64,000 nucleotides of DNA from Elusimicrobiota bacterium (GCA_016191335.1 JACPOW010000001.1:1035-65034), one strand, 5' to 3'; positions 28,746 to 40,608 are shown, counted from the stretch's first letter. Program-made: numbers and translations. The notes: generated by a model not told the origin, from the letters alone.

Positions 28746-28949
28746 TTGAGCCTCCTGCGGCCACTGCTGTTTCGATAACGGGATTATGCGCCAATAGCGC
28801 TTTCAAGGGGTGAGCAAGAGGGCCAATAGACCCACGGCAATGGGCCCACGCGAGTTTGGGCCCTCTGGTCTTACAAAAGCACCTATCGGCCCCCCGTCGG
28901 CGGACGGGAAAACCCTTTGGCTCCTCTGTTGCATGGATATGTAGGCGTT

Positions 28950-29522
28950 ATGTTAGAGATACGCTTTCACGGCCGCGGCGGCCAAGGGACGGTCCTCGCC
29001 GCCAAGATCATCGCCGACGCGGTCCTGCGCCAGGGCGAGAAGCAGTGCCTGGCGATCCCGGAGTTCGGCGTCGAGCGCCGCGGCGCGCCGGTCATGGCCT
29101 ACGCCCGCGTCAGCGACCAGCCCATCCTCGCGCGCACCAAGATCTACGCGCCGGACGCCCTGGTCGTCCTCGACCCCACCCTATATACGTCCGACATCCT
29201 GAAAGGGATCAAGCCCGGCGGCACGGTCCTGACCAACAGCGACCCCGCCGACATCCCGAAGCTCTCCGCCCGCGCGCCGGGCCTCAAGTTCATCGCCGTC
29301 CCCGCGCACAATATCGCGCTCGAGCTCAAGCTCGGCTCCGCCTCGAGCCCGATCGTCAACACCGCGATGTGCGGCGCCGCCTGCGCCGTGTTCGGCCTGT
29401 GCGGCCTCGACGCGCTGCTCGAGTGCGTCCGCGAGGCCGTGCCGGTCAAGGCCGACGCCAACGTCGAGGCCGCGCGCCGCGCCTTCGAAGCCGCCCGGGA
29501 GGTCCTGCATGCCTCTGCTTGA
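28950..29522 (+). CDS. 2-oxoacid:ferredoxin oxidoreductase, gamma subunit
   Basis: 190 aa from ATG 28950. MLEIRFHGRGGQGTVLAAKII is the typical gamma-subunit N-terminus. Confidence 0.85.
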   Translation: MLEIRFHGRGGQGTVLAAKIIADAVLRQGEKQCLAIPEFGVERRGAPVMAYARVSDQPILARTKIYAPDALVVLDPTLYTSDILKGIKPGGTVLTNSDPADIPKLSARAPGLKFIAVPAHNIALELKLGSASSPIVNTAMCGAACAVFGLCGLDALLECVREAVPVKADANVEAARRAFEAAREVLHASA

Positions 29523-29790
29523 CGAAGACCCCAGAGCCTACCCGCGCGTGATGATCGCGTCGCGCTCGATGGACGAGAACCACACGGGCAACTGGCGCAC
29601 CTTGCGCCCCGTCATCGACGCGAAGGCCTGCACCGGCTGCAACATCTGCTGGAAGCAGTGCCCCGAGGCCTGCGTGGACCTGACCGACAAGGTCCCGAGC
29701 ATCGACATGGATTACTGCAAGGGCTGCGGCATCTGCGTGGCCGAGTGCCCGGCCCACTGCGTGCATTTCGTCCCCGAGAGCGCGTCATGA
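29509..29790 (+). CDS. 2-oxoacid:ferredoxin oxidoreductase, delta subunit (2x[4Fe-4S] ferredoxin)
   Basis: 93 aa with CTGCNICWKQCP and CKGCGICVAECP cluster motifs. Confidence 0.85.
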   Translation: MPLLDEDPRAYPRVMIASRSMDENHTGNWRTLRPVIDAKACTGCNICWKQCPEACVDLTDKVPSIDMDYCKGCGICVAECPAHCVHFVPESAS

Positions 29791-30941
29791 AGAAAGTCCT
29801 CAGCGGAAACCACGCCGCGGCGCTGGCCGCGCAGCTCGCCCGGACCCAGGTCTCCGTCGGCTATCCGATCACGCCGGCCACCCAGGTCTTCGAGGCTCTA
29901 GCGGAAATGAAGTCCAAAGGTGAATTCCCCGGGGAGTTCATCGCCGCGGAGTCCGAGCACTCGGTCATGGCCGCGCTGCTCGGCGCCTCCACCGCCGGGG
30001 CGCGCACCTTCACCGCGACCTCCTCGCACGGCCTGGCCTACATGCACGAGGTCCTGCACTGGGTCGCCGGAGCGCGCCTGCCCATCGTGATGATCGACGT
30101 CAACCGGGCCCTCGCCGCGCCGTGGAACCTGTGGACCGACCAGACCGACTCCCTCTCCCAGCGCGACACCGGCTGGATGCAGACCTACTGCTCGACCAAC
30201 CAGGAAGTCCTCGACACAGTGCTGATGTCGTTCAAGATCGCCGAGCGCGTGATGCTGCCCTCGATGGTGGTGCTCGACGGCTTCACTTTGTCTCACAGCT
30301 ACGAGCCGGTCGACGTCCCGGCCCAGGCGGACGTCGACGCGTTCCTGCCCCCCTTCCGCCCGGAGCTGAAGCTCGACTGCGACCAGCCGATCACCTTCGG
30401 CTCGCTCACCCAGCCCAAGGACTACCTGCGCCTGCGCCGCCGCATGGCCGCGGACATGGCCGAGGCCGAGGACGCCATCGAGGAGGTCGGGCGCGAGTTC
30501 GGCGAGATGTTCGGCCGCTCCTACGGCCAGCTCGACCCCTATCTCTGCGAGGACGCCGAGACCATCCTCGTGACGAGCGGGGCCGTCGGCTCCACCGCGC
30601 GCGCCGCCGTCGACGCGCTGCGCGCCAAGGGCCTCAAGGCCGGCAACCTGCGCCTGCGCGCCTTCCGGCCGTTCCCGGCCAAGGCCCTGCGCGCCTTCGT
30701 GCGTCCGGGCATGAAGCTCGCGGTCGTCGACCGCAACTACTCCCCCGGCATGGGCGGCATCTTCGCCCAGGAGATCAAGGCCGCGCTGTACCCGCGCCCC
30801 GGCGTCTCCGTGCACGGCTACGTGACCGGCCTCGGAGGCGGCGACATCACCGTCGAGCTGCTCCAGGAGGTCTGGGAGCGGGTCGACGAGTCTCCCGTGG
30901 CCGAGGTCCCCGCCGCGACCTGGGTGGAGGACGCCCGATGA
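29787..30941 (+). CDS. 2-oxoacid:ferredoxin oxidoreductase, alpha subunit
   Basis: 384 aa from ATG 29787 (ATGA overlap). N-terminus MKKVLSGNHAAALAAQLARTQVSVGYPITPAT. Confidence 0.85.
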   Translation: MKKVLSGNHAAALAAQLARTQVSVGYPITPATQVFEALAEMKSKGEFPGEFIAAESEHSVMAALLGASTAGARTFTATSSHGLAYMHEVLHWVAGARLPIVMIDVNRALAAPWNLWTDQTDSLSQRDTGWMQTYCSTNQEVLDTVLMSFKIAERVMLPSMVVLDGFTLSHSYEPVDVPAQADVDAFLPPFRPELKLDCDQPITFGSLTQPKDYLRLRRRMAADMAEAEDAIEEVGREFGEMFGRSYGQLDPYLCEDAETILVTSGAVGSTARAAVDALRAKGLKAGNLRLRAFRPFPAKALRAFVRPGMKLAVVDRNYSPGMGGIFAQEIKAALYPRPGVSVHGYVTGLGGGDITVELLQEVWERVDESPVAEVPAATWVEDAR

Positions 30942-31822
30942 CCACGCTCAAGAAGACGAAGACCTCGATCCCCCAGACCGAGCTGATGAGCTCGGGCCAC
31001 CTGGCCTGCCAGGGCTGCGGCGCGACGATGGCGATGCGCTACGCGCTCAAGGGCCTGGGCGACCGGACCGTCATGGTCGTCCCCGCCTGCTGCTGGACCG
31101 TGATCTCCGGGGCCAATCCGCGCAGCTCGATCAACCTGCCGCTGCTGCACAGCCCCTTCGCCGCGGCCGCGGCCACGGCGACCGGCGTCAAGGCCGGCCT
31201 CGTCTCCCGCGGCGACAAGGAGACGACCGTCGTGGCCTGGGCCGGCGACGGCGGCACCTTCGACATCGGCATCCAGGCGCTGTCCGGCGCCGCCGACCGC
31301 AACGAGGACATCCTCTACGTCTGCTACGACAACGAGGCCTACATGAACACCGGGGTGCAGCGCAGCGGCGGCACGCCCTCCGGCGCGTGGACGATGTCCA
31401 CCCCCGGCGGGAGCTCGCGCCCGAAGAAGGACCTCGACGCGATCATGCTCGCCCACCACATCCCCTATTTCGCCACCGCCACGCCGGCCTACGCCGAGGA
31501 CATGGTGCGCAAGTTCGCCAAGGCGCGGACGGTCAAGGGCTTCCGCTTCATCCACATCCTCTCCCCGTGCCCCCCCGGCTGGAAGACCGACCCGATGGAC
31601 AGCACCAAGCTCTCCCGCCTGGCCGTGCAGACCGGCCTGTTCCGCCTCTACGAGGTGGAGGAGGGCGTGATGAAGCTCAACATGAACGTGGCCAACCGCA
31701 AGCCCGTCGCGGAATACCTGAAGGCGCAGGGCCGCTTCAAGAACATGCCCCCGGATGAGATGTCCGCGATCCAGGCCCGCGTCGACGCGTTCTGGGAGAG
31801 CGAGAAGGGGCGGCCGTCATGA
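30938..31822 (+). CDS. 2-oxoacid:ferredoxin oxidoreductase, beta subunit (ThDP-binding)
   Basis: 294 aa from ATG 30938 (ATGA overlap). Contains GHLACQGCG, AWAGDGGTFDIG and YDNEAYMNTG. Confidence 0.85.
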   Translation: MTTLKKTKTSIPQTELMSSGHLACQGCGATMAMRYALKGLGDRTVMVVPACCWTVISGANPRSSINLPLLHSPFAAAAATATGVKAGLVSRGDKETTVVAWAGDGGTFDIGIQALSGAADRNEDILYVCYDNEAYMNTGVQRSGGTPSGAWTMSTPGGSSRPKKDLDAIMLAHHIPYFATATPAYAEDMVRKFAKARTVKGFRFIHILSPCPPGWKTDPMDSTKLSRLAVQTGLFRLYEVEEGVMKLNMNVANRKPVAEYLKAQGRFKNMPPDEMSAIQARVDAFWESEKGRPS

Positions 31823-31998
31823 CGCCGCGCAAGAGCAAGTGCGTCGAGTGCCGCCACTGCGACATGCAGCTCGACCCCAAGAAGGGCTCGCGCCATCACT
31901 GCGCGCGCAAGAAGCGCGTCCTCCCCGCCAACGTGACCTCGCGCCCGGCGTGCGACCGCTTCGAGGCGCCCAAGCCGTCCGGCCACTGGGGACCCTAG
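31819..31998 (+). CDS. 59-aa 4-Cys miniprotein (C-x2-C-x16-C-x16-C), translationally coupled to the beta subunit
   Basis: Below the ORF-track cutoff. ATGA overlap with the beta stop. Product MTPRKSKCVECRHCDMQLDPKKGSRHHCARKKRVLPANVTSRPACDRFEAPKPSGHWGP. Almost every codon ends in G/C, as in real genes here. A paralogous module sits at 37204-37356. Confidence 0.6.
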   Translation: MTPRKSKCVECRHCDMQLDPKKGSRHHCARKKRVLPANVTSRPACDRFEAPKPSGHWGP

Positions 31999-32047
31999 CC
32001 GCCCCCCCGCCGACTTTCGTATCCTCATCCTCACGCTGGAGAAAACC

Positions 32048-34378
32048 ATGCCCACCGTCACCGCCGCCGAACAATTCACGCTGAGGCCCCGCCGCGCCGT
32101 CTACCTGAAGCCCGAGCCCGCCGCCTTCGAGGGCGTCGAGACGCTCGAGGCGATGGACGCCGCCTACCGCGCCCTGTGCGCGATCCTCTTCAACTTCGTG
32201 CCGAACTCCGGCCATCCGGGAGGCAGCATCTCCTCGGGGCGCATCGTCTCCTCCCTCCTCTACAAGAACCTGCGCTACGACTTCTCCCGCCCCGACACGA
32301 TCGACAACGACGTCCTCGTCTACGCCGCCGGCCACAAGGCGATGGGCCTGTACGGGATGTACGCCCTGCGCGACGAGTGGGTCCGCATCGCGCGCCCCGA
32401 CCTCCTGCCCTCCGAGCGCCGCCGCCTGCGCCTCGAGGACCTGCTCGGCTTCCGCCGCAACCCGACGCAGTCGACGCCCCTCTTCCGCCAGTTCAAGTGC
32501 ATGGCCCTCGACGGCCATCCGACCCCGATGACGCCCTTCGTGCCCGTCGCCACGGGCGCCTCCGGCGTCGGCGACTGCACCGGCGTCGGCCTGGCGCTCG
32601 CCGCGATGGACGCCTTCGGGCCCAAGGGCCCCCGCGTCCACCTCCTCGAGGGCGAAGGCGGCATGACCGCCGGGCGCGTGCACGAGGCGCTGGCCACCGC
32701 GGCCACCGCGGGCCTGTCGAACGCCATCATGCACCTGGACTGGAACCAGGCCTCGATCGACTCCGACCGCGTCACCGCCGAGGGCGACAAGCCCGGCGAC
32801 TACGTGCAGTGGGACCCGCGCGAGCTGCTGTACATGAACGACTGGAACCTCGTCGAGGCCGGCGACGGCAGCGACTTCCGCCGCGTGCTGGCCGCCCAGC
32901 AGGCCGCGCTCTCCCTCGACAACGGCCAGCCCACCGCGATCGTGTACCGCACGACCAAGGGCTGGAAGTACGGCATCGAGGGCAAGGGCTCCCACGGCGC
33001 GGGCCACGCTTTCTGCTCCGACGCCTTCTACAAGGCCGTCGAGCCTTTCGAGACCGCGTTCGGCGTGAAGCTCCCCCGCTTCGAAGGGGAGAAGACCCCG
33101 GACCGCGTCGAGGCGGCGTACTGGGAGACCTTGCTCACCATGCGCAAGGCGTTCGAGACGAAGCGCCCCGACGTGGCGCGCTTCGCGGCCGGGCGCGTGG
33201 CCGAAGCGGGCGCGGCGACCCCGAAGGGGCGCGCCGTCCGCGCCGGCGGGCCCGACCTGGCGGCGCTGTACGCCTCCGACCTCAAGGCCGAGGTCACGCC
33301 CGAGCCCCTCAAGCTCGAGACCGGCAAGGCCGCCACCATCCGAGGCGCCTTGGGCGACGCTTTGGGCTACCTCAACACCGTCACCAAGGGCGCCATCATC
33401 GCGTGCGCGGCCGACCTGGCCGAGTCCACGAGCGTCTCCCCGATCAACAAGGCCTTCGCCAAGGGCTGGTTCCACGCCAAGAACAACCCCGTCTCGCGCC
33501 TGATCTCCGTCGGCGGCATCTGCGAGGACGCGATGGGCGGCGTGATGGCCGGGGCCTCGAGCCTGGGCCTGCACATCGGCGTGTCGAGCTCCTACTCCGC
33601 CTTCATCGCCGCGCTCGAGCACGTCCCCGCGCGCCTGCACTCCATCGGCCAGCAGATGCGCCACGAGGCGACGGGCGAGCCCAACCGCGTCTGGATCATG
33701 GTCAACGCCCACGCCGGCCCGCTCACCGGCGAGGACGGCCCGACCCACGCCTGTCCTCAGGCCCTGCAGCTGCTGCAGGACAACTTCCCGAAGGGCTCGC
33801 TGATCACGCTCACGCCCTGGGACCCGTCGGAGGTCTGGCCGCTCGTGATGGAATCCCTGCGCGCCCGCCCCGCCGTGCTGGCCCCGTTCGTCACGCGCCC
33901 GGCCTGCCCGGTGCCGGACCGCGCGAAGATGGGATTGCCGCCCGCGTCCGCGGCGGCCAAGGGCATCTACGCGGTGCGCCGCGGCGGCAAGAAGACCGTC
34001 GTCCTGCAGGGCCACGGCGTGGCGCATCACTTCATGCGCGACGTCCTGCCCAAGCTCGACGCCGCGGGCGTCAAGCTCAACGTCTTCTACGTGGCCAGCG
34101 CCGAGCTCTACGACCGCCTCAGCCCCGCCGAAAAGGAGGAAGTCTTCCCGCCCGAGCTGGCCTTCAACTCCATGGGCATCACGGACTTCACCTTGGCCAC
34201 GATGTGGCGCTGGGTGCGCTCCGACGCGGGGCTGGCGGCGACGCTGTATCCGGCGAAGACCTTGGGCTACCTGGGCAGCGGCTCGGGCGACAAGGTCCTC
34301 GAGCAGGCGGGCCTGACCGGCCCCGGACAGCTGGCGGCGATCACGGCCTGGGTCGCCGGCGGCGATTCGAGAGACTGA
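32048..34378 (+). CDS. long transketolase-family ThDP enzyme (776 aa), atypical
   Basis: Contains HPGGSISSG, LLEGEGGMTAG...LDWNQASID and TGEDGPTH. GGAGAAAACC Shine-Dalgarno upstream. An extra segment of roughly 100 aa lies between the PP and Pyr domains. Confidence 0.75.
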   Translation: MPTVTAAEQFTLRPRRAVYLKPEPAAFEGVETLEAMDAAYRALCAILFNFVPNSGHPGGSISSGRIVSSLLYKNLRYDFSRPDTIDNDVLVYAAGHKAMGLYGMYALRDEWVRIARPDLLPSERRRLRLEDLLGFRRNPTQSTPLFRQFKCMALDGHPTPMTPFVPVATGASGVGDCTGVGLALAAMDAFGPKGPRVHLLEGEGGMTAGRVHEALATAATAGLSNAIMHLDWNQASIDSDRVTAEGDKPGDYVQWDPRELLYMNDWNLVEAGDGSDFRRVLAAQQAALSLDNGQPTAIVYRTTKGWKYGIEGKGSHGAGHAFCSDAFYKAVEPFETAFGVKLPRFEGEKTPDRVEAAYWETLLTMRKAFETKRPDVARFAAGRVAEAGAATPKGRAVRAGGPDLAALYASDLKAEVTPEPLKLETGKAATIRGALGDALGYLNTVTKGAIIACAADLAESTSVSPINKAFAKGWFHAKNNPVSRLISVGGICEDAMGGVMAGASSLGLHIGVSSSYSAFIAALEHVPARLHSIGQQMRHEATGEPNRVWIMVNAHAGPLTGEDGPTHACPQALQLLQDNFPKGSLITLTPWDPSEVWPLVMESLRARPAVLAPFVTRPACPVPDRAKMGLPPASAAAKGIYAVRRGGKKTVVLQGHGVAHHFMRDVLPKLDAAGVKLNVFYVASAELYDRLSPAEKEEVFPPELAFNSMGITDFTLATMWRWVRSDAGLAATLYPAKTLGYLGSGSGDKVLEQAGLTGPGQLAAITAWVAGGDSRD

Positions 34379-34384
34379 GCCCGG

Positions 34385-36964
34385 TCACCTCGCGCGCAGC
34401 AGGACGTCTTCAGGTCCCGACAGGGACGGCGTCTGGTCGCGGTTCTGGCGGCGCGCCTCGTCCTGGACCTTGGGCTTGAGGTAGGAGTGCAGGGAGGCCG
34501 TCGTGACCGGCCCGCCCGCCGACAGCCCCTTGAGCAGGTGGTAGGTGAACAGGCCGTGGCCCTGCTCCTTGAGCACGCTCGTGATCTGGTCGGGCTGGGT
34601 CGCCGCGAGCACCGAGAGGCGGCCCGTCGCGGGCTTCTGCAGCCTCGACACGAGCGGCCGCGCGCCCTCGGAGAGCACGGAGCGCCCTCCCGCTCCCGAG
34701 AAGCAGGCGTCGAGCAGGACGACGACCTGCTTCGCCTTGAGGCCGTCGAGCGTCTTATAGAGCCGGTCCACGGGATACGCCGTGTCCGCGAGGAACGAGG
34801 CGTCGCCGTCCCACGGCATCAGGAACGCCCGGCCCGTCGACGGGTCGGGCGCGCCGTGCCCCGAGAAATAGAAGAAGACCCGGCTGCGCTCGTTCGCGTT
34901 CTTGGGCAGCCAGCTCTCGAGGTACTTGGCGAGCGCGGAGCGCCCGGCCTTGGCGCCCGAGAGCAGGATGAGGTTGCGCTCGGGCACGCCGAGAGCCTTG
35001 AGGTGACGGCGCACCGCGGCCGCGTCGCGTTCGGCGAAGAGCGCCTTCGGAAGCTCGGAGTACTCCTCGACGCCGACGACGATCGCGAAGGCGTCGGGAT
35101 CCTCGGGCAAGGCGTAGCCGGGCTTGTCCGCGTCGGAGACGAGCGCCGGCGCCGCGGCCGGCGGCGCGACGGCGACGGCGGCCTTCTTCTCGCGCGCGGC
35201 GGCCGCCGCCACGGCCTGATCGACGAGGCGATGCACGTCGGGCGTTGGAGCGGCGGGCTTGCCGCGCGCGGACGCGGAGCGCAGGATGTTCAATGTCTCG
35301 GCGCCCTTCGCGTGGTCGTAGGGCGTCTTCTGGCTGTTGTCCTGCCACAAGGGATCGGCGCCCTTGGCGAGCAGCCAGCTCACCATCTTCGCGTTCCCCT
35401 GCTCGGCGGCGCGCGTCAGCGCGGTGAACCCGATCTGGTCGGGCCGGTCGATTCTGGCGCCTCCCGCCAGCAGCGCCTGCGCGGACTCGAGGGAGCAGTC
35501 GGGCCGCACGGCGCAGCCCGCGAGCGGCGCCTCATCGCGCGCGCCGTCTCCCTGGTTCGGGTCGGCCCCCGCGGCGAGCAGCCGCTTGACGACGTCCGGC
35601 CACTCGAGCGCCATCGTGAGCGGAGGCTCCTTGCGTCCGGAGCGCAAGGACAGGTCCGGCTTGTGCTTGAGCAGAGCGGCGAGCAGCGGCTCCGAAGGCT
35701 TCGGGCGCGGCCACGGCGGGCCCTCGAGCAGGCGCGTGAGCGCCGTGTAGCCTTTCGCGTCGGGGGCGTCGAGCTTCGCGCCGGCGGCGAGCAGCGCCTC
35801 GAGGGACTCGGGGCCGCAGTCCTTCTCCCCCTCGGAATGCCGGCTCGTCAGATAGGTGAGCGGAGTCAGCCCGCGCTCGGCGTCCGCCTGCTCGGGATCG
35901 GCGCCGTGCTTGAGGGCCCAGTCCAACAGTTCGGGGTCGCACGCGACGCGGTGAAGCGGGGGACGTCCCCCGGACATCAGGCCGCGATGCCCCGGATGCG
36001 ACAGGAGCAGCTTGACAGCCTCGCGATTGCCCGCGGCCAGGGCGGTCTCAAGAGGCACCTCCCCTTCCCTGACGCAGGAAACAGGGTCCCCGCCAGGGTA
36101 GGCCAGCAGCCAGCGCAGCGCGGGCGTCAGCGCCGGCGAAGCGGCGGCGCGAGCCAGCGAGACTCTGCGCAGGCACCATGGGGATTCGAAGGCGACGCCG
36201 CGCGACACGATCAGGTCGGCGAGAGCCGGATCGGGCCGCTCGACCTCGAACAGCGCGCGATCAACCGCACCGTCTACAATGTAATCAGGCCCGATCTTCA
36301 GAGTGGGGCTCGACTCGAGGACCAAGCGCAGAGTCTGAGTGTCGCCACGGACGCCCGCCCGCGGCCAATCCGAATCGAACGGATAACCGGAGGCGAGCAG
36401 GCCCCGCGCCGCCTCGGGGCAGACACTCGAGGGGGCCGGTTGAAGCTTGGCGCCGCGCTTGATGAGCAGCTCGAAATGCTTCATGCAGCATTCGCCGGCG
36501 GCACGGTATAGCGGACCGTCGTAGACGTCTTTCGGGTGGGCGTTGGGCGAAGCACCTCCGTCGAGCAGGACCTCGAGCAAAGCGGGGTTCTCGCGGCCTT
36601 GAGGGCAGCCGCTGTGATAGGTCAACTGGGAGGTCATGTTCCCCTTGTTGCTCACGTCGGCGCGAACGCCGGCCGCGAGAAGCCGTTTGACGGTCTCGGT
36701 GCCGCGCTGCATGGCGAACTTGAGCAGGGACAGCTGATCCTCGTCGGCGGAAGGGACCTTCACGCCGGCGGCGAGCAGCAGATGGACGGACCCGGTCGAC
36801 CCGGATCTCAACGCCTCCTGAAGATGCGCGGTCTTGGGCTTGCGCTCCTTGAGAAGCTCGGCGACCTTCGCCGGGTCTCCCAGCGCGTCCATGAGGGGGT
36901 CTTTCGCGGCGGCGATCGAAGGCAGGACGGCGGCGAGCAGCAGGGCGGGGAGCAAAGTCCTCAT
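34385..36964 (-). CDS. secreted ankyrin-repeat protein with a C-terminal caspase-family (C14) domain
   Basis: 859 aa from ATG 36964 (signal MRTLLPALLLAAVLPSIAAA). At least 8 ankyrin-like repeats (G[AG][AD][PL][ND] turns, e.g. LLAAGADPNQGD, LAKGADPLWQD). The C-terminus has the His-Cys dyad context FFYFSGHGAP and VVLLDACFSGAGG. Confidence 0.8.
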   Translation of the reverse strand: MRTLLPALLLAAVLPSIAAAKDPLMDALGDPAKVAELLKERKPKTAHLQEALRSGSTGSVHLLLAAGVKVPSADEDQLSLLKFAMQRGTETVKRLLAAGVRADVSNKGNMTSQLTYHSGCPQGRENPALLEVLLDGGASPNAHPKDVYDGPLYRAAGECCMKHFELLIKRGAKLQPAPSSVCPEAARGLLASGYPFDSDWPRAGVRGDTQTLRLVLESSPTLKIGPDYIVDGAVDRALFEVERPDPALADLIVSRGVAFESPWCLRRVSLARAAASPALTPALRWLLAYPGGDPVSCVREGEVPLETALAAGNREAVKLLLSHPGHRGLMSGGRPPLHRVACDPELLDWALKHGADPEQADAERGLTPLTYLTSRHSEGEKDCGPESLEALLAAGAKLDAPDAKGYTALTRLLEGPPWPRPKPSEPLLAALLKHKPDLSLRSGRKEPPLTMALEWPDVVKRLLAAGADPNQGDGARDEAPLAGCAVRPDCSLESAQALLAGGARIDRPDQIGFTALTRAAEQGNAKMVSWLLAKGADPLWQDNSQKTPYDHAKGAETLNILRSASARGKPAAPTPDVHRLVDQAVAAAAAREKKAAVAVAPPAAAPALVSDADKPGYALPEDPDAFAIVVGVEEYSELPKALFAERDAAAVRRHLKALGVPERNLILLSGAKAGRSALAKYLESWLPKNANERSRVFFYFSGHGAPDPSTGRAFLMPWDGDASFLADTAYPVDRLYKTLDGLKAKQVVVLLDACFSGAGGRSVLSEGARPLVSRLQKPATGRLSVLAATQPDQITSVLKEQGHGLFTYHLLKGLSAGGPVTTASLHSYLKPKVQDEARRQNRDQTPSLSGPEDVLLRAR

Positions 36965-37034
36965 CCGGCCGATTGTACCCGTTCGACGGATTTTGGACAA
37001 GCCCGGCTGGCAGGTTTGTTGCATTTCAGACGAC

Positions 37035-37187
37035 ATGAAAAAGTGCCCTGATTGTCGCAATCCCGTCACTTCGCTGATGTTCCTCGACGGCAAGCTCGTC
37101 CCCGAGCACTACTGCGAGCGCTGCTGTAAGAGCGTCGCCCCCGTGGTGAAGCCCGTCGCGGCGCCCCGGGAAGCGGTCCCCGCCTAA
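37035..37187 (+). CDS. 50-aa zinc-ribbon-like protein (CxxC-x19-CxxC)
   Basis: Product MKKCPDCRNPVTSLMFLDGKLVPEHYCERCCKSVAPVVKPVAAPREAVPA. It ends 16 nt before the CoA-transferase A gene. No clear Shine-Dalgarno. Confidence 0.45.
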   Translation: MKKCPDCRNPVTSLMFLDGKLVPEHYCERCCKSVAPVVKPVAAPREAVPA

Positions 37188-37203
37188 GACCCCCAGGGGC
37201 CTC

Positions 37204-38370
37204 ATGCCGAAGACCGGCGCCCCCGTCTGCTCGGACTGCGGCTGGCTGGAGACGCGGACCAGCGCCGACGGCCGCTCGTTGCGCTTCTGCGTCAAGCACG
37301 GCATGCCGCGCTCCGCGGTCGACCTCCTCTCCGCGCCCTGCAGCGACTTCAAGCCCCTGGAGACGACGGGAGTCCTCCCCGCCCAGCCCCCGCTCCCCCC
37401 GCCGGTCCGGCCGCTGCCGGAACCGCCGCTGTTCCAGCCGCCGGACCCCGACGGCTTCCGCCGCTTCCTGCGCGACGACAAGGATTTTTCGCTCCGCTCG
37501 AAACTGATGGACGAGCGCCAGGCGGTCAAGCGCTTCATCCGCACCGGCGACTACATCGGCTTCGAGCTGTACGGCACGGTCCGCTGCCCGATGTCGGTGG
37601 TGCGCGAGATCGCGCGCCGGAAGATCGGCGGCCTGCGCCTGATGGGCCAGGGCCTGATGGACGCCGACTTCCTGATCGCCTCCGGCCTCGTCGACGAGAT
37701 GGACATCACCTACGTGGGCTACGAGGCCTACGGCCTCTCCCCCATCCTGCGCCGCGCCGTCGAGGGCGGCGCGCTCAAGCTCGCGGAATGGTCCAACGCC
37801 GCCATCACCTGGCGCATGAAGGCGGCGGCGATGGGCCTGCCGTTCCTGCCCGCGCGGACCATGCTCGGCACCGACACGCTCGCCCGCAGCCCGGCCAAGA
37901 CGATGAAGGACCCCTTCACCGGCATGGACCTGACCTTGCTGCCGGCGCTCGTCCTCGACACGGCGGTCATCCACGTCCACCGCGCCGACAAGTTCGGCAA
38001 CTGCCAGATCGACGGCATCTCCGGCTTCGCCGTCGAGATGTCCCGGGCCTGCAAGCGCCTCATCGTCAGCGCCGAGGAGATCGTCGACACCGAGGTGTTC
38101 CGCAGGACGCCCGAGCGCACCGTCATCCCCTATTTCCTCGTCGACGCCGTCGTCCCCGCGCCCTTCGGCGCGCACCCCGGCGAGACCTGCGGCGTCTACC
38201 GCCGCGACGAGCCGCACATCAAGGCCTACCTCGAGGCGACGCGGTCCGAGGAAGCGACCAAGGAATATCTCGACGAGTTCATCCACGGCGTGAAGGACCA
38301 CGCCGCCTATCTCAAGCGCGTCGGCGCCGCCCGCCTGGGCAAGCTGAAGGTGAGGAAGAATGAGCGCTGA
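37204..38370 (+). CDS. family-I CoA-transferase subunit A (glutaconate-CoA-transferase-like) with a ~100-aa N-terminal 4-Cys + Pro-rich extension
   Basis: 388 aa. The canonical domain begins near KLMDERQAVKRFIRTGDYIGFE. The extension MPKTGAPVCSDCGWLETRTSADGRSLRFCVKHGMPRSAVDLLSAPCSDFKP has high GC3 and the same Cys spacing as ORF 31819-31998. Confidence 0.8.
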   Translation: MPKTGAPVCSDCGWLETRTSADGRSLRFCVKHGMPRSAVDLLSAPCSDFKPLETTGVLPAQPPLPPPVRPLPEPPLFQPPDPDGFRRFLRDDKDFSLRSKLMDERQAVKRFIRTGDYIGFELYGTVRCPMSVVREIARRKIGGLRLMGQGLMDADFLIASGLVDEMDITYVGYEAYGLSPILRRAVEGGALKLAEWSNAAITWRMKAAAMGLPFLPARTMLGTDTLARSPAKTMKDPFTGMDLTLLPALVLDTAVIHVHRADKFGNCQIDGISGFAVEMSRACKRLIVSAEEIVDTEVFRRTPERTVIPYFLVDAVVPAPFGAHPGETCGVYRRDEPHIKAYLEATRSEEATKEYLDEFIHGVKDHAAYLKRVGAARLGKLKVRKNER

Positions 38371-39127
38371 GAAGGCCAACGCCACCGAGCGCCTCGCCTG
38401 CACCGCGGCCCGCCTGATGAAGGGCCGCACGACCGTCTTCATCGGCACCGGCGTGCCGATGCTGGCCGCGTCGCTCGCCCGCGCCCTGTACGCGCCCTCG
38501 CTCATCCCCGTCTTCGAGTTCGGCGGCGTCGGCTCGACCCTCGAGAAGCTGCCGCTCGCCGTCGGCGAGCACAACTCCTTCCGCCGCGGCGTCGCGGCGA
38601 TGGGCATCTGCGACGTGATGGAGGCCGCGCAGCGCGGCGTGGTGCGAGACGGCTTCCTCGGCGGCGCGCAGATCGACCCGTACGGCAACCTGAACACGAC
38701 CGTGATCGGCCCCTACGACGACCCCGCGGTGCGCCTGCCCGGCTCGGGCGGGGCCAACGACGTCGGCTCCCTGTGCTGGCGCACGATCATCATCATGAAG
38801 CACGAGCGCAAGCGCTTCGTGCCGAAGGTGGATTTCCTGACCACGCCGGGCTACCTCGACGGCCCCGGCGCCCGCGAGCGCGCGGGCCTGCCGCCGGAGA
38901 CGGGCCCCTACCGCGTCGTGACCGACCTCGCCGTCTTCGACTTCGACCCGGGCTCCAAGCGCATGCGCCTGATCGCGCTGAACCCCGGCGTGACCACGGA
39001 GCGCGTCGCCGCCGAGACCGGCTTCCCTTTCCCCATCGCCGACCGGGTCACGCTCAACGCCGACCCGACCCCGCTCGAGCTTCGGACTTTGCGCCGCAAG
39101 ATCGACCCCGACAAGGTCTTCCTCTGA
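38360..39127 (+). CDS. family-I CoA-transferase subunit B
   Basis: 255 aa. GGAQIDPYGNLNTTVIG...RLPGSGGANDV pattern. Overlaps subunit A by 11 nt. Confidence 0.8.
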   Translation: MSAEKANATERLACTAARLMKGRTTVFIGTGVPMLAASLARALYAPSLIPVFEFGGVGSTLEKLPLAVGEHNSFRRGVAAMGICDVMEAAQRGVVRDGFLGGAQIDPYGNLNTTVIGPYDDPAVRLPGSGGANDVGSLCWRTIIIMKHERKRFVPKVDFLTTPGYLDGPGARERAGLPPETGPYRVVTDLAVFDFDPGSKRMRLIALNPGVTTERVAAETGFPFPIADRVTLNADPTPLELRTLRRKIDPDKVFL

Positions 39128-39201
39128 CCCGACTGCTGCTCGTCGACCTGATCCCCGATACCGCGGTCCACCACCCGCGGACGATCACCTTTCCGTTCCT
39201 G

Positions 39202-40608
39202 ATGGGCCTGAGCCGGCTCCTCGGCTGGCGGGCCTGCTGGAGCGCGCTCGGCGTGCGCTACGCCCCCGACCTGCGCTACGTCCTGACGAAGGAGGACCTG
39301 GCGCTCCTGCTCGCCGAGACGAAGCGCCGCCGTCCCGAGATCGTGGTCATCAACCAGCGCCTGCCGAAGGGCCAGATGAACGCGATCGCCGCCGCGTCCG
39401 GCGCGCGCGTCGTGTATTGGAACATGACCGAGAACGTCCACGACCTCGCCGAACACGTCCGGCGCCGGATGCCGGAAGCCCGCGGCCCCGTCCTCGACGA
39501 CCCGGGGCTGCTCGACCGGATACGCCCGGACTACCGGTGCACGATCCTCAACAAGGCCCCCTGGGCCGCCAACCCGGTCGTCGAGGTGATCGGCGGCCAT
39601 CGCTGCTCCTACCACGCTCCCGTCGCCTCCAATCCGTTCTACCGCGGCCTCGGCCTGCCGTCGGCGAGCATGGGCTGCTCCTTCTGCCAGGTGCCCGACA
39701 TGAAGAGCTCCCGCTGGCGGGTCAAGGATGCGGCGGCCTTCACCGTGAGGCAGATCGCGGCGCTCAGCCGCCAGCGGCCCGCGAAAGGCGGCGAGACGCG
39801 CCTCAACCTGTGCGGCTACGAGCTGTGGCGGCGCCTCGAGGAGCTCGCCCGCGCCTTGGTCCGCGAGGGCGTGCGCGGCGTCGAGCTCGATTTCATGCCC
39901 CGGCTCGACGAGGTGCTCGCCGCGCGGGTCGCCATCGAGCGCGTCCTGCCGCTGCTGGCGGGCAACGGGATCTCCCTGCGCATCAACGGCCTGGGTGTCG
40001 AGAACTTCTCGCCGGACGAGAACGCGCGCCTGCACAAGGGCATCACGGCCGAGCAGGTCCATGAGGCGTCCGCCTTCCTGACCGCCTGCTCCGAGCGCTG
40101 GCCCGGGACCTTCCGGCTGCCGTTCGGTGGGCTGGGCATGATCCTGTTCACGCCCTGGACGACGCTGAAGGACCTGCGCGTCAACCTCGACAACATCGAG
40201 CGCTGCCCTTTGATCGACCGCCCGTTCGCGCTCAGCCGGCGGCTGATGCTGTTCCCGGGCGCGCCGGTCACCTTGCTCGCCGAGCGGGACGGCCTTCTCG
40301 CGAAGACGCACGACGGCCTCTTCTACAACGCCGGCTGCAAGATCGACGCCGACAAGAACGACCTCCCCTGGCGCTTCGCCCGGCCGGAGGTCGCGGTGCT
40401 GTGGAGCCTCGCCCGCCGGATCTCGTCGGACCGCTACAACATCCCCGACGACGACCCCGTCAAGCGCGCCGCCGCGCCCTTCGTCGACCGGCCCGGGAGG
40501 GCGCCGTTCGACCCCCTCCCGCTGTTCCGGGAGGCCGTCGACGCCATCGAGCGCCGCCCGAAGACCGCCTCGCCGCTCGAGCTGCTCGCGCTCCTGCGCG
40601 CGCCCTAG
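39202..40608 (+). CDS. radical-SAM-like TIM-barrel protein with a non-canonical Cys motif (start uncertain; frame open from 39124)
   Basis: The frame is open from the codon overlapping the subunit B stop. The first ATG is at 39202, with only CTG codons before it. Motif HRCSYH-x..-GCSFC (C-x23-C-x2-C). Later blocks (GLGVENFS, GMILFTPWTTLKDL) resemble radical-SAM barrels. Confidence 0.5.
   Translation: MGLSRLLGWRACWSALGVRYAPDLRYVLTKEDLALLLAETKRRRPEIVVINQRLPKGQMNAIAAASGARVVYWNMTENVHDLAEHVRRRMPEARGPVLDDPGLLDRIRPDYRCTILNKAPWAANPVVEVIGGHRCSYHAPVASNPFYRGLGLPSASMGCSFCQVPDMKSSRWRVKDAAAFTVRQIAALSRQRPAKGGETRLNLCGYELWRRLEELARALVREGVRGVELDFMPRLDEVLAARVAIERVLPLLAGNGISLRINGLGVENFSPDENARLHKGITAEQVHEASAFLTACSERWPGTFRLPFGGLGMILFTPWTTLKDLRVNLDNIERCPLIDRPFALSRRLMLFPGAPVTLLAERDGLLAKTHDGLFYNAGCKIDADKNDLPWRFARPEVAVLWSLARRISSDRYNIPDDDPVKRAAAPFVDRPGRAPFDPLPLFREAVDAIERRPKTASPLELLALLRAP

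Follow-up and report, generated by a model that had tools for sequence, protein, structure and literature searches.

We report on a 64,000-nucleotide stretch of DNA from an Elusimicrobiota bacterium (GCA_016191335.1, JACPOW010000001.1:1035-65034; the whole stretch is called the window below, and positions are counted from its first letter), in which an earlier note had described a gene for a secreted protein with ankyrin repeats and a caspase-type domain, inserted antisense between the two halves of a metabolic cluster. The exported ankyrin/caspase-like gene is real, and that observation is confirmed. An 859-residue product is encoded on the minus strand at positions 34385-36964, with its ATG at 36964, and is identical to NCBI entry MBI2787067.1, which is labelled [quoted passage not shown] (MAG, metagenome-assembled genome) and comes from a 65.7-kb contig. 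Read from this ATG, the product begins MRTLLPALLLAAVLPSIAAAKDP. From its sequence and from structural modelling, we think it probable that the protein is an extracytoplasmic cysteine endopeptidase of clan CD, which would process or degrade proteins outside the cytoplasm. The gene and the parts of its product are as follows.

34385..36964, minus strand: coding sequence of the ankyrin/caspase-like protein, 859 residues, TGA stop at 34385-34387
36905..36964, minus strand: predicted Sec (signal peptidase I) signal peptide, residues 1-20, with the cleavage site between AAA and KDP (n-, h- and c-regions, A-x-A site)
35330..36847, minus strand: all-alpha ankyrin-like repeats, residues 40-545, about 13-15 repeats (Pfam matches significant for residues ~296-545 only)
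35138..35329, minus strand: Ala/Pro-rich linker, residues 546-609, with the predicted helix DVHRLVDQAVAAAAAREKK (AlphaFold helices at residues 551-567 and 575-598)
34388..35137, minus strand: caspase-like domain (Peptidase_C14, clan CD), residues 610-859, including an SD(V/A)DKPxY lead-in (Pfam, AlphaFold, Foldseek)

The C-terminal C14 domain that had been proposed was borne out by a Pfam match to PF00656 over residues 626-849 (E = 1.2e-12; 48.5 bits against a cut-off of 21.4), which covered positions 3-224 of the 233-position model. An AlphaFold model of the domain, built from the C-terminal 279 residues aligned with 121 relatives, had a predicted local distance difference test score (pLDDT) of 91.1 and a predicted template modelling (TM) score of 0.87. 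A Foldseek search with this model returned 269 PDB matches at E ≤ 0.001, and all 50 of the matches listed were to MALT1, GSU0716, metacaspases or caspases. The best of these was the MALT1 paracaspase (E = 1.7e-12, TM-score ~0.6), at a sequence identity of 16-19%; other best matches were Geobacter GSU0716 (3bij), the metacaspases of yeast, Candida, trypanosome and Arabidopsis, and animal caspases. Domain models and structure prediction, both of which the note had proposed as checks, thus gave a C14 domain with a caspase-type alpha/beta fold. A single-sequence search of the caspase domain against PDB sequences produced chance matches only; a profile of the family reached two solved structures, Yca1 (E = 0.0095) and T. 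brucei MCA2 (TbMCA2; E = 0.028), with no others detectable by sequence profile. That metacaspase alignment spans only the region from strand 1 to the His of SGHG. Since the ~100 residues that follow the catalytic Cys hold strands 5-6 and two helices, the fold appears complete. The protein does not group with the type I metacaspases by their N-terminal features, as its N-terminus consists of a signal peptide and ankyrin repeats, with no Pro-rich or zinc-finger prodomain.

Both catalytic contexts were found intact, as the note had stated, with SGHG at residues 701-704 and DACFSG at residues 752-757. The residues and the loop on which our reading of the active site turns are these.

34856..34858, minus strand: catalytic His703 codon, part of SGHG (set against the catalytic His of Yca1 and TbMCA2 by the profile alignment)
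34703..34705, minus strand: catalytic Cys754 codon, part of DACFSG (strand 746-754 ends on this residue, which matches the caspase fold)
35024..35026, minus strand: Asp647 codon; a predicted acidic residue of the S1 pocket, corresponding to TbMCA2 Asp95 and MALT1 Asp365 (profile alignment)
34709..34711, minus strand: codon of Asp752, two residues before Cys754, equivalent to TbMCA2 Asp211 and MALT1 Asp462 (motif position; PMC4357240, PMC6426788)
34649..34696, minus strand: near-invariant post-Cys loop, residues 757-772, GAGGRSVLSEGARPLV, with Arg761 and Arg769 (conservation; low pLDDT at residues 758-771)

Among 258 relatives, Asp647 and Asp752 were present in all 258, His703 in 257 and Cys754 in 256. 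The family-profile alignment placed SGHG on the HYSGHG of Yca1 and TbMCA2, Asp647 on TbMCA2 Asp95 and Ser701 on TbMCA2 Ser156. A misaligned dyad had been named as a finding that would overturn the proposal; the alignment and the conservation among the 258 relatives show the dyad to be in register, and the protein is very probably an active protease. In TbMCA2 the S1 pocket is formed by Cys92, Asp95, Ser156 and Asp211, in MALT1 the pocket for a P1 Arg consists of Asp365, Asp462 and Glu500, and the two pocket Asp residues are the basis of basic specificity in orthocaspases (PMC4357240, PMC6426788). Because the S1 pocket in our protein is likewise acidic (Asp647 and Asp752), we predict cleavage after Arg or Lys at P1 rather than after Asp. 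Asp792 and residue 793, which is Gln here and Glu in most relatives, may also line the pocket.

Three further motifs are specific to the family. The core of the domain is preceded by the lead-in SD(V)DKPxY; given the acidic S1 pocket, an Asp-type autoprocessing site between SDVD and K within it was considered and is disfavoured. The post-Cys loop follows the motif GAGGRSVLxxGARPLV, in which Arg761 is kept in 256 and Arg769 in 255 of the 258 relatives; it is flexible in the model, and we regard it as a candidate gating, regulatory or autoprocessing loop. Of its two Arg residues, Arg761 would be the likelier site of self-cleavage, as Pro comes directly after Arg769. A second GHG motif, QGHGxFTY, lies after the catalytic Cys, and its His803 (codon 34556-34558, minus strand) is invariant in all 258.

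Export was the other main element of the proposal. The N-terminus, MRTLLPALLLAAVLPSIAAA followed by KDP, opens with a basic n-region and continues into a hydrophobic core of 15 residues (Kyte-Doolittle maximum 2.7); A-x-A directly precedes Lys21. Its layout of n-, h- and c-regions, MR-TLLPALLLAAVLPSI-AAA before K, agrees with that of a Sec and signal peptidase I substrate in n-region charge, h-region length (10-15 residues) and small residues at -3 and -1. The 859-residue protein has no lipobox Cys, unlike 170 of the 258 relatives; another 46 relatives have some other hydrophobic N-terminus, and many of the remaining 42 resemble truncated gene calls. Of the 170 lipobox members, just 2 have Asp in position +2 relative to the lipobox Cys. 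With these rule-based features, a cleavage site retained in the orthologue described below and export signals throughout the family, the claim of a signal peptide held up, and the protein is very probably exported.

The note had cautioned that the signal peptide would fall if the true start were an upstream ATG at 37093. The codon at 37093 is in fact TTG; it is the most upstream start codon of the longest reading of the frame (34385..37093, minus strand). Four results led us to favour 36964 over both 37093 and an in-frame ATG at 37036. The orthologue P0241 (810 residues, colinear and 46% identical over its full length) begins at the same Met, reading MRRAIAVFLLTVLMSPLAAAKDP, and shares the cleavage site between AAA and KDP. 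A promoter-like site falls within the would-be extension upstream of 36964, and it was the sole sigma-70-like site within 34200-37400 (one found against 0.0 expected from shuffled sequences).

36972..37000, minus strand: predicted sigma-70-like promoter TTGTCC-17-TACAAT (reading 37000 to 36972), ending 7 nt before the ATG

Since the zinc-ribbon gene on the plus strand begins at 37035, an upstream extension would overrun it. Finally, DNA homology to a relative's contig, L081, picks up again at 37030. No Shine-Dalgarno sequence was found before the ATG at 36964, and the orthologue has TAGAAT 6 nt before its own ATG; together with the promoter-like site 7 nt from the ATG, this makes it plausible that the mRNA is leaderless. 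The starts of the caspase-like and zinc-ribbon genes do face each other, as had been noted, and stand 70 bp apart (36965-37034). An opposite-strand open reading frame (ORF) at 34487..36511 was rejected as a shadow ORF of DNA with 70% G+C, homology here being exclusively to the minus strand. We found no second copy of the gene in the window.

Between the signal peptide and the caspase-like domain the protein is largely ankyrin-like. Pfam scores were above the gathering scores for Ank_2 (89.5 bits), Ank_4 (79.4) and Ank (68.2). When the protein was scanned piecewise, residues 296-560 gave significant matches and residues 24-180 weak ones, and most of the N-terminal repeats were individually below the Pfam threshold. 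Across residues 40-545 we counted ~15 'hhLLxxGAxx' signatures (LLxxGA core) at a spacing of ~33 residues, from which we estimate ~13-15 mostly degenerate repeats, so that the earlier description of at least eight ankyrin-type repeats was a fair one. In a full-length AlphaFold model from a mixed ANK/caspase alignment the ankyrin region is all-alpha, with short helix pairs (mean pLDDT 66.8); as this half was modelled poorly, our repeat count is based on the sequence signatures. A segment similar to the linker occurs in P0002, P0241 and P0242. The Ala/Pro linker is common to the N-terminal regions of the family, because of which BLAST clustering of these regions merged them into a single component and was uninformative.

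When we searched databases with the whole protein, ankyrin matches dominated and a single other protein with ANK and C14 appeared. A search with the caspase domain identified more than 1,300 proteins at 55-64% identity, typically of 400-490 residues and nearly all, among those named, from Elusimicrobiota MAGs. Pfam ANK was carried by about 20 of the 120 closest of these relatives; the search for a combined ANK and C14 architecture that had been suggested thus indicates that it is not rare in Elusimicrobiota. An exhaustive search of cluster representatives with the caspase domain gave 1,776 clusters at E ≤ 1e-30. It also brought up two long relatives, P0241 and P0242, whose caspase domains are 80% and 68% identical, respectively. 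At least 584 matches came from GTDB species genomes, nearly all in Elusimicrobiota; among the best 78 of these at least 584 loci, 75 were named as Elusimicrobia or Elusimicrobiota, with ~30 assemblies represented, up to six loci per assembly and a median G+C of 66%. The sources were almost wholly Elusimicrobiota MAGs from groundwater, peat, soil and lakes. In front of the same caspase domain we found Sel1 repeats, WD40 with PDZ, ANK with PDZ, or ANK arrays, the longest protein having 1,741 residues. No neighbour or operon partner recurs across the best 78 loci. By these searches the family is very large, rich in paralogues, mostly of predicted lipoproteins and almost confined to Elusimicrobiota, and the 859-residue protein is a member of a long-ANK subgroup with an ordinary signal peptide, unusually long for the family. 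Our literature search found no paper on this caspase-domain family, which is uncharacterised yet visible in databases.

Taken together, these features suggest the following picture. The protein would be exported by Sec and lose its signal peptide after Ala20, which would leave it soluble, either in the periplasm or secreted. By analogy with the general behaviour of ankyrin repeats, the long solenoid of ankyrin-like repeats at the N-terminus may serve as an arm that binds partners or substrates, and the C-terminal domain would cut proteins by means of the His703/Cys754 dyad. The acidic pocket of Asp647 and Asp752 would direct cleavage to Arg or Lys, the preference of metacaspases, orthocaspases and paracaspases, rather than to Asp, and the near-invariant Arg-containing loop at residues 757-772 would probably gate the active site or be autoprocessed. 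Across the family, members appear to be built on one plan, in which the C-terminal caspase domain stays the same and the protein-binding modules in front of it (ANK, Sel1, WD40 or PDZ) are interchangeable. The most likely role, as far as sequence can tell, is the processing or degradation of envelope or extracellular proteins, for example in surface remodelling, turnover or peptide acquisition. More tentatively, and more likely wrong than right, one might see in the family a phylum-specific, massively expanded set of surface or periplasmic caspase-like proteases in which repeat modules direct one conserved Arg/Lys-specific domain to varied extracytoplasmic targets and the invariant Arg-containing loop is a shared activation switch. 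Such a set would form a network of extracellular proteolysis unlike any described for caspase homologues of bacteria, and might be central to how Elusimicrobiota feed on other cells or interact with them.

Several points weigh against an exported ankyrin-guided protease. The signal peptide was judged by rule (n-, h- and c-regions plus A-x-A). The equivalence of Cys754 and Asp752 to the residues of known enzymes rests on motif position and similarity of fold, not on a residue-level superposition, and a near-invariant Arg646 adjoins Asp647 and could change the charge of the pocket. In the ankyrin half, a Pfam scan of residues 178-302 (~120 residues) gave no ANK signal, and the AlphaFold model of the region is of low confidence, with pLDDT mostly below 60. 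An opposite-strand gene 6 nt away and an absent terminator are uninformative as to function.

The position of the gene in the metabolic cluster also fits the earlier description. The neighbouring features are as follows.

29658-31822: 2-oxoacid:ferredoxin oxidoreductase subunits
32048-34378, plus strand: transketolase-like protein, 776 residues (Pfam Transketolase_N and Transket_pyr)
34355..37029, no strand assigned: 2.7-kb insertion/deletion (indel) with the caspase-like gene and its promoter, absent at this place in L081 (blastn, gene order, junctions)
37035-37187, plus strand: zinc-ribbon ORF, 50 residues
37204-39127: CoA-transferase A and B

The stops of the transketolase-like gene (TGA at 34376-34378) and of the caspase-like gene are convergent and separated by a 6-nt spacer, the distance the note had given. 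The nearest available relative of the transketolase-like protein (93% identical) is encoded on contig L081, the DNA of which is ~89% identical to that of the window. By blastn, L081 52-5412 corresponds to window 28911-34354 and L081 5471-5629 to window 37030-37188. Since the zinc-ribbon gene directly follows the transketolase-like gene in L081, we recognized window 34355-37029 as an indel, in keeping with the proposed insertion between the two halves of the cluster. Homologues with long ANK arrays occupy unrelated genomic contexts. The insert does not differ from its flanks in G+C (0.70), and its G+C at third codon positions (GC3) is 0.885 against 0.97 in the neighbouring genes; because the overall G+C equals that of the flanks and the difference in GC3 is modest, we rejected a foreign origin by base composition. 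As read from these comparisons, the gene is an accessory, strain-specific insert with its own putative promoter, on the strand opposite to the flanking metabolic genes and with no apparent functional tie to them.

The same cluster showed other differences between the two genomes. Between its zinc-ribbon gene and CoA-transferase A, L081 (5630-8706) carries a LysR gene, a histidine kinase, a response regulator and a 77-residue ORF; the counterpart in the window (37188 to 37222) consists of 33 nt only. Conversely, window 39126-40604 is missing from L081 and is a second strain-specific insert in the cluster. It contains a ~468-residue ORF (the later part of ORF 38773..40608, plus strand) that reads like a real protein, with no Pfam match above threshold and a weak match to Radical_SAM (E = 0.0034). 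Because L081 and the window each hold further inserts, the intergenic slots of the cluster seem to be indel hot spots. Among the neighbours, the transketolase-like protein has relatives, mostly annotated as hypothetical, in many Elusimicrobiota and in a small number of other MAGs (58-93% identity); its gene stands beside the oxidoreductase genes in the nearest relative only, with other neighbours already at 84-90% identity. The Cys-rich zinc-ribbon-like ORF (37035-37187, plus strand) has 85% nucleotide identity in L081, and CoA-transferase A has a CxxC...C N-terminal extension of its own (37204-37300, plus strand); a Pfam scan of this ORF and of this extension found no family match. The contigs that carry P0241-type orthologues (L079, L080, L084 and L085) all end 30-32 nt past the stop of the orthologue, which suggests an assembly break at a repeat or strain-variable junction downstream. 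On three of them a 244-residue protein with an Ntox37 domain (PF15535) is encoded just upstream of the long-ANK orthologue on the same strand (L079 2906-3640, L080 500-1234 and L084 5877-6611), followed by ORFs of 104 and 314 residues.

We weighed four other explanations for the gene. One is that the product is a Sec-exported toxin of the polymorphic type, in which the repeats would present a C-terminal Tox-caspase harmful to rival bacteria or to eukaryotic cells. A Sec-dependent toxin architecture made up of a signal peptide, ankyrin, Sel1 or beta-propeller repeats and a caspase-like peptidase was described by Zhang et al. 2012 (PMC3482391), who noted a possible toxin function for caspase domains at the C-terminus. 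For the orthologue P0241/P0499, the Ntox37-domain gene is found two genes upstream, and an accessory indel would suit a toxin gene; however, no immunity-type gene follows, the next gene being the convergent transketolase-like gene 6 nt away, and no gene family recurs beside the best 78 family loci. The polarity is also the reverse of that in polymorphic toxins, with a constant C-terminal domain and a varying N-terminal region, and two-thirds of the members would, by their lipobox, be lipid-anchored to the cell that makes them. We therefore consider a toxin unlikely. An ankyrin effector delivered into eukaryotic hosts or prey, as in Legionella, Coxiella and Wolbachia, would be in line with the enrichment of ankyrin repeats in host-associated bacteria, and there were weak matches to Legionella Dot/Icm Ank effector models. 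The latter (AnkY, AnkH, AnkX and AnkG) scored 23-51 bits against cut-offs of 500-1400, and because of this we take them as generic ANK similarity only. The relatives come from groundwater, peat, lake and soil MAGs, the export signals are of the Sec and lipoprotein kind rather than a type III or type IV secretion signal, and no secretion-system genes flank the gene. A delivered effector is thus very improbable. The note had offered an effector and an envelope-processing enzyme as possibilities for an exported protease targeted by an ankyrin array; export, the protease and the insertion were upheld, and the host-effector part was not, given the environmental sources, the signals and scores so far below cut-off.

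The caspase fold might instead serve a transpeptidase or ligase, of the legumain or glycosylphosphatidylinositol (GPI)-transamidase type, or a non-catalytic binding module. Clan CD does include transpeptidating enzymes, we saw a faint match to Peptidase_C13 (E = 0.044), and the unusually conserved post-Cys loop and the invariant His803 of QGHGxFTY are particular to this family. Yet the match to C13 falls short of the threshold, and the structures matched best are those of endopeptidases. Because the dyad and the two Asp residues of the pocket hardly vary among 258 divergent sequences, we disfavour a pseudo-enzyme; a non-hydrolytic protein is quite unlikely. Lastly, a cytoplasmic caspase of conflict or programmed cell death (EACC1-associated or from a defence island), read from an upstream start without a signal peptide, would agree with the best NCBIfam match, NF047832 ('caspase, EACC1-associated type'), and with a PADLOC scan, which gave generic caspase and ANK model matches and nothing else. 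The NCBIfam match scored 76 bits against a cut-off of 140, and four things speak for the start at 36964, namely the NCBI gene call, the promoter-like site, the start of the orthologue and the divergent gene that an extension would overlap. Export signals are found family-wide, the neighbours are metabolic, with no NTPase or other partner nearby, and none is conserved across the best 78 loci, so that this explanation is largely refuted and has scarcely any chance of being correct. An extracytoplasmic endopeptidase is accordingly the reading we keep.

Most caspase homologues of bacteria have yet to be characterised, and discussion of them usually centres on cytoplasmic proteins of cell death or defence. 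The Elusimicrobiota family points away from cytoplasmic roles, with its predicted export, mostly by lipid anchoring, and its modular N-termini, and since the active sites are essentially invariant its members should be working enzymes. The modularity of the N-termini suggests proteolysis directed at specific extracytoplasmic targets. If this is true, it would add to the roles known for the bacterial caspase fold and provide a handle on the envelope biology of an uncultivated phylum. At the level of the window the result is more ordinary, namely an accessory gene within a metabolic cluster, and the main interest is at the level of the family: a phylum-restricted expansion of exported, mostly lipoprotein, caspase-like enzymes, as predicted here. 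Elusimicrobia were listed among the phyla without metacaspases in a 2012 survey (PMC3501461), yet hold this large caspase-like family.

Among known systems, the 859-residue protein shares its architecture with those Sec-dependent polymorphic toxins that end in a Tox-caspase (PMC3482391), from which the Elusimicrobiota proteins differ in lacking an adjacent immunity gene, in being constant at the C-terminus and variable at the N-terminus, and in being mostly lipoproteins. The closest in structure is the MALT1 paracaspase, which has an acidic S1 pocket at the equivalent Asp365 and Asp462 and is active without cleavage of its post-Cys loop (PMC4357240), a possible analogy for the conserved loop here. 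MALT1 is, on the other hand, a cytoplasmic signalling protease of eukaryotes with death and Ig domains, and the relationship is seen at the level of the fold only (16-19% identity), no closer than that to other C14 members. With the type I metacaspases (Yca1 and T. brucei MCA2) the family profile shares strand 1, the 'xDA' pocket Asp and the His of SGHG; unlike them, the domain here is compact (~235 residues) and predicted to be extracytoplasmic. It is preceded by neither a Pro-rich nor a zinc-finger prodomain, and neither an extra insertion nor a cluster of calcium-site Asp residues can be recognised in it.

Gingipains and clostripain come from anaerobes and have accessory binding domains. 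These clan-CD enzymes (C25 and C11) offer a functional analogy as secreted or surface Arg/Lys-specific cysteine proteases, and they also figure in PMC3482391. They differ in belonging to other peptidase families, with no sequence match found, and gingipains use type IX secretion with a C-terminal sorting domain, which is absent from the 859-residue protein. The orthocaspases and bacterial metacaspase-like C14 proteins (Microcystis MaOC1; GSU0716, 3bij) share with the Elusimicrobiota family the His-Cys dyad in SGHG and DxC, both S1-pocket Asp residues, which predict Arg/Lys specificity (PMC6426788), and the fusion of the C14 domain to protein-interaction modules. In contrast to orthocaspases, whose additional domains are drawn C-terminal in Figure 1 of PMC6426788 (its text mentions N-terminal ones too), the Elusimicrobiota proteins carry their accessory modules N-terminally, are predicted to be exported or lipid-anchored, and are set apart by the family-specific motifs SDVDKPxY, GAGGRSVLxxGARPLV and QGHGxFTY.

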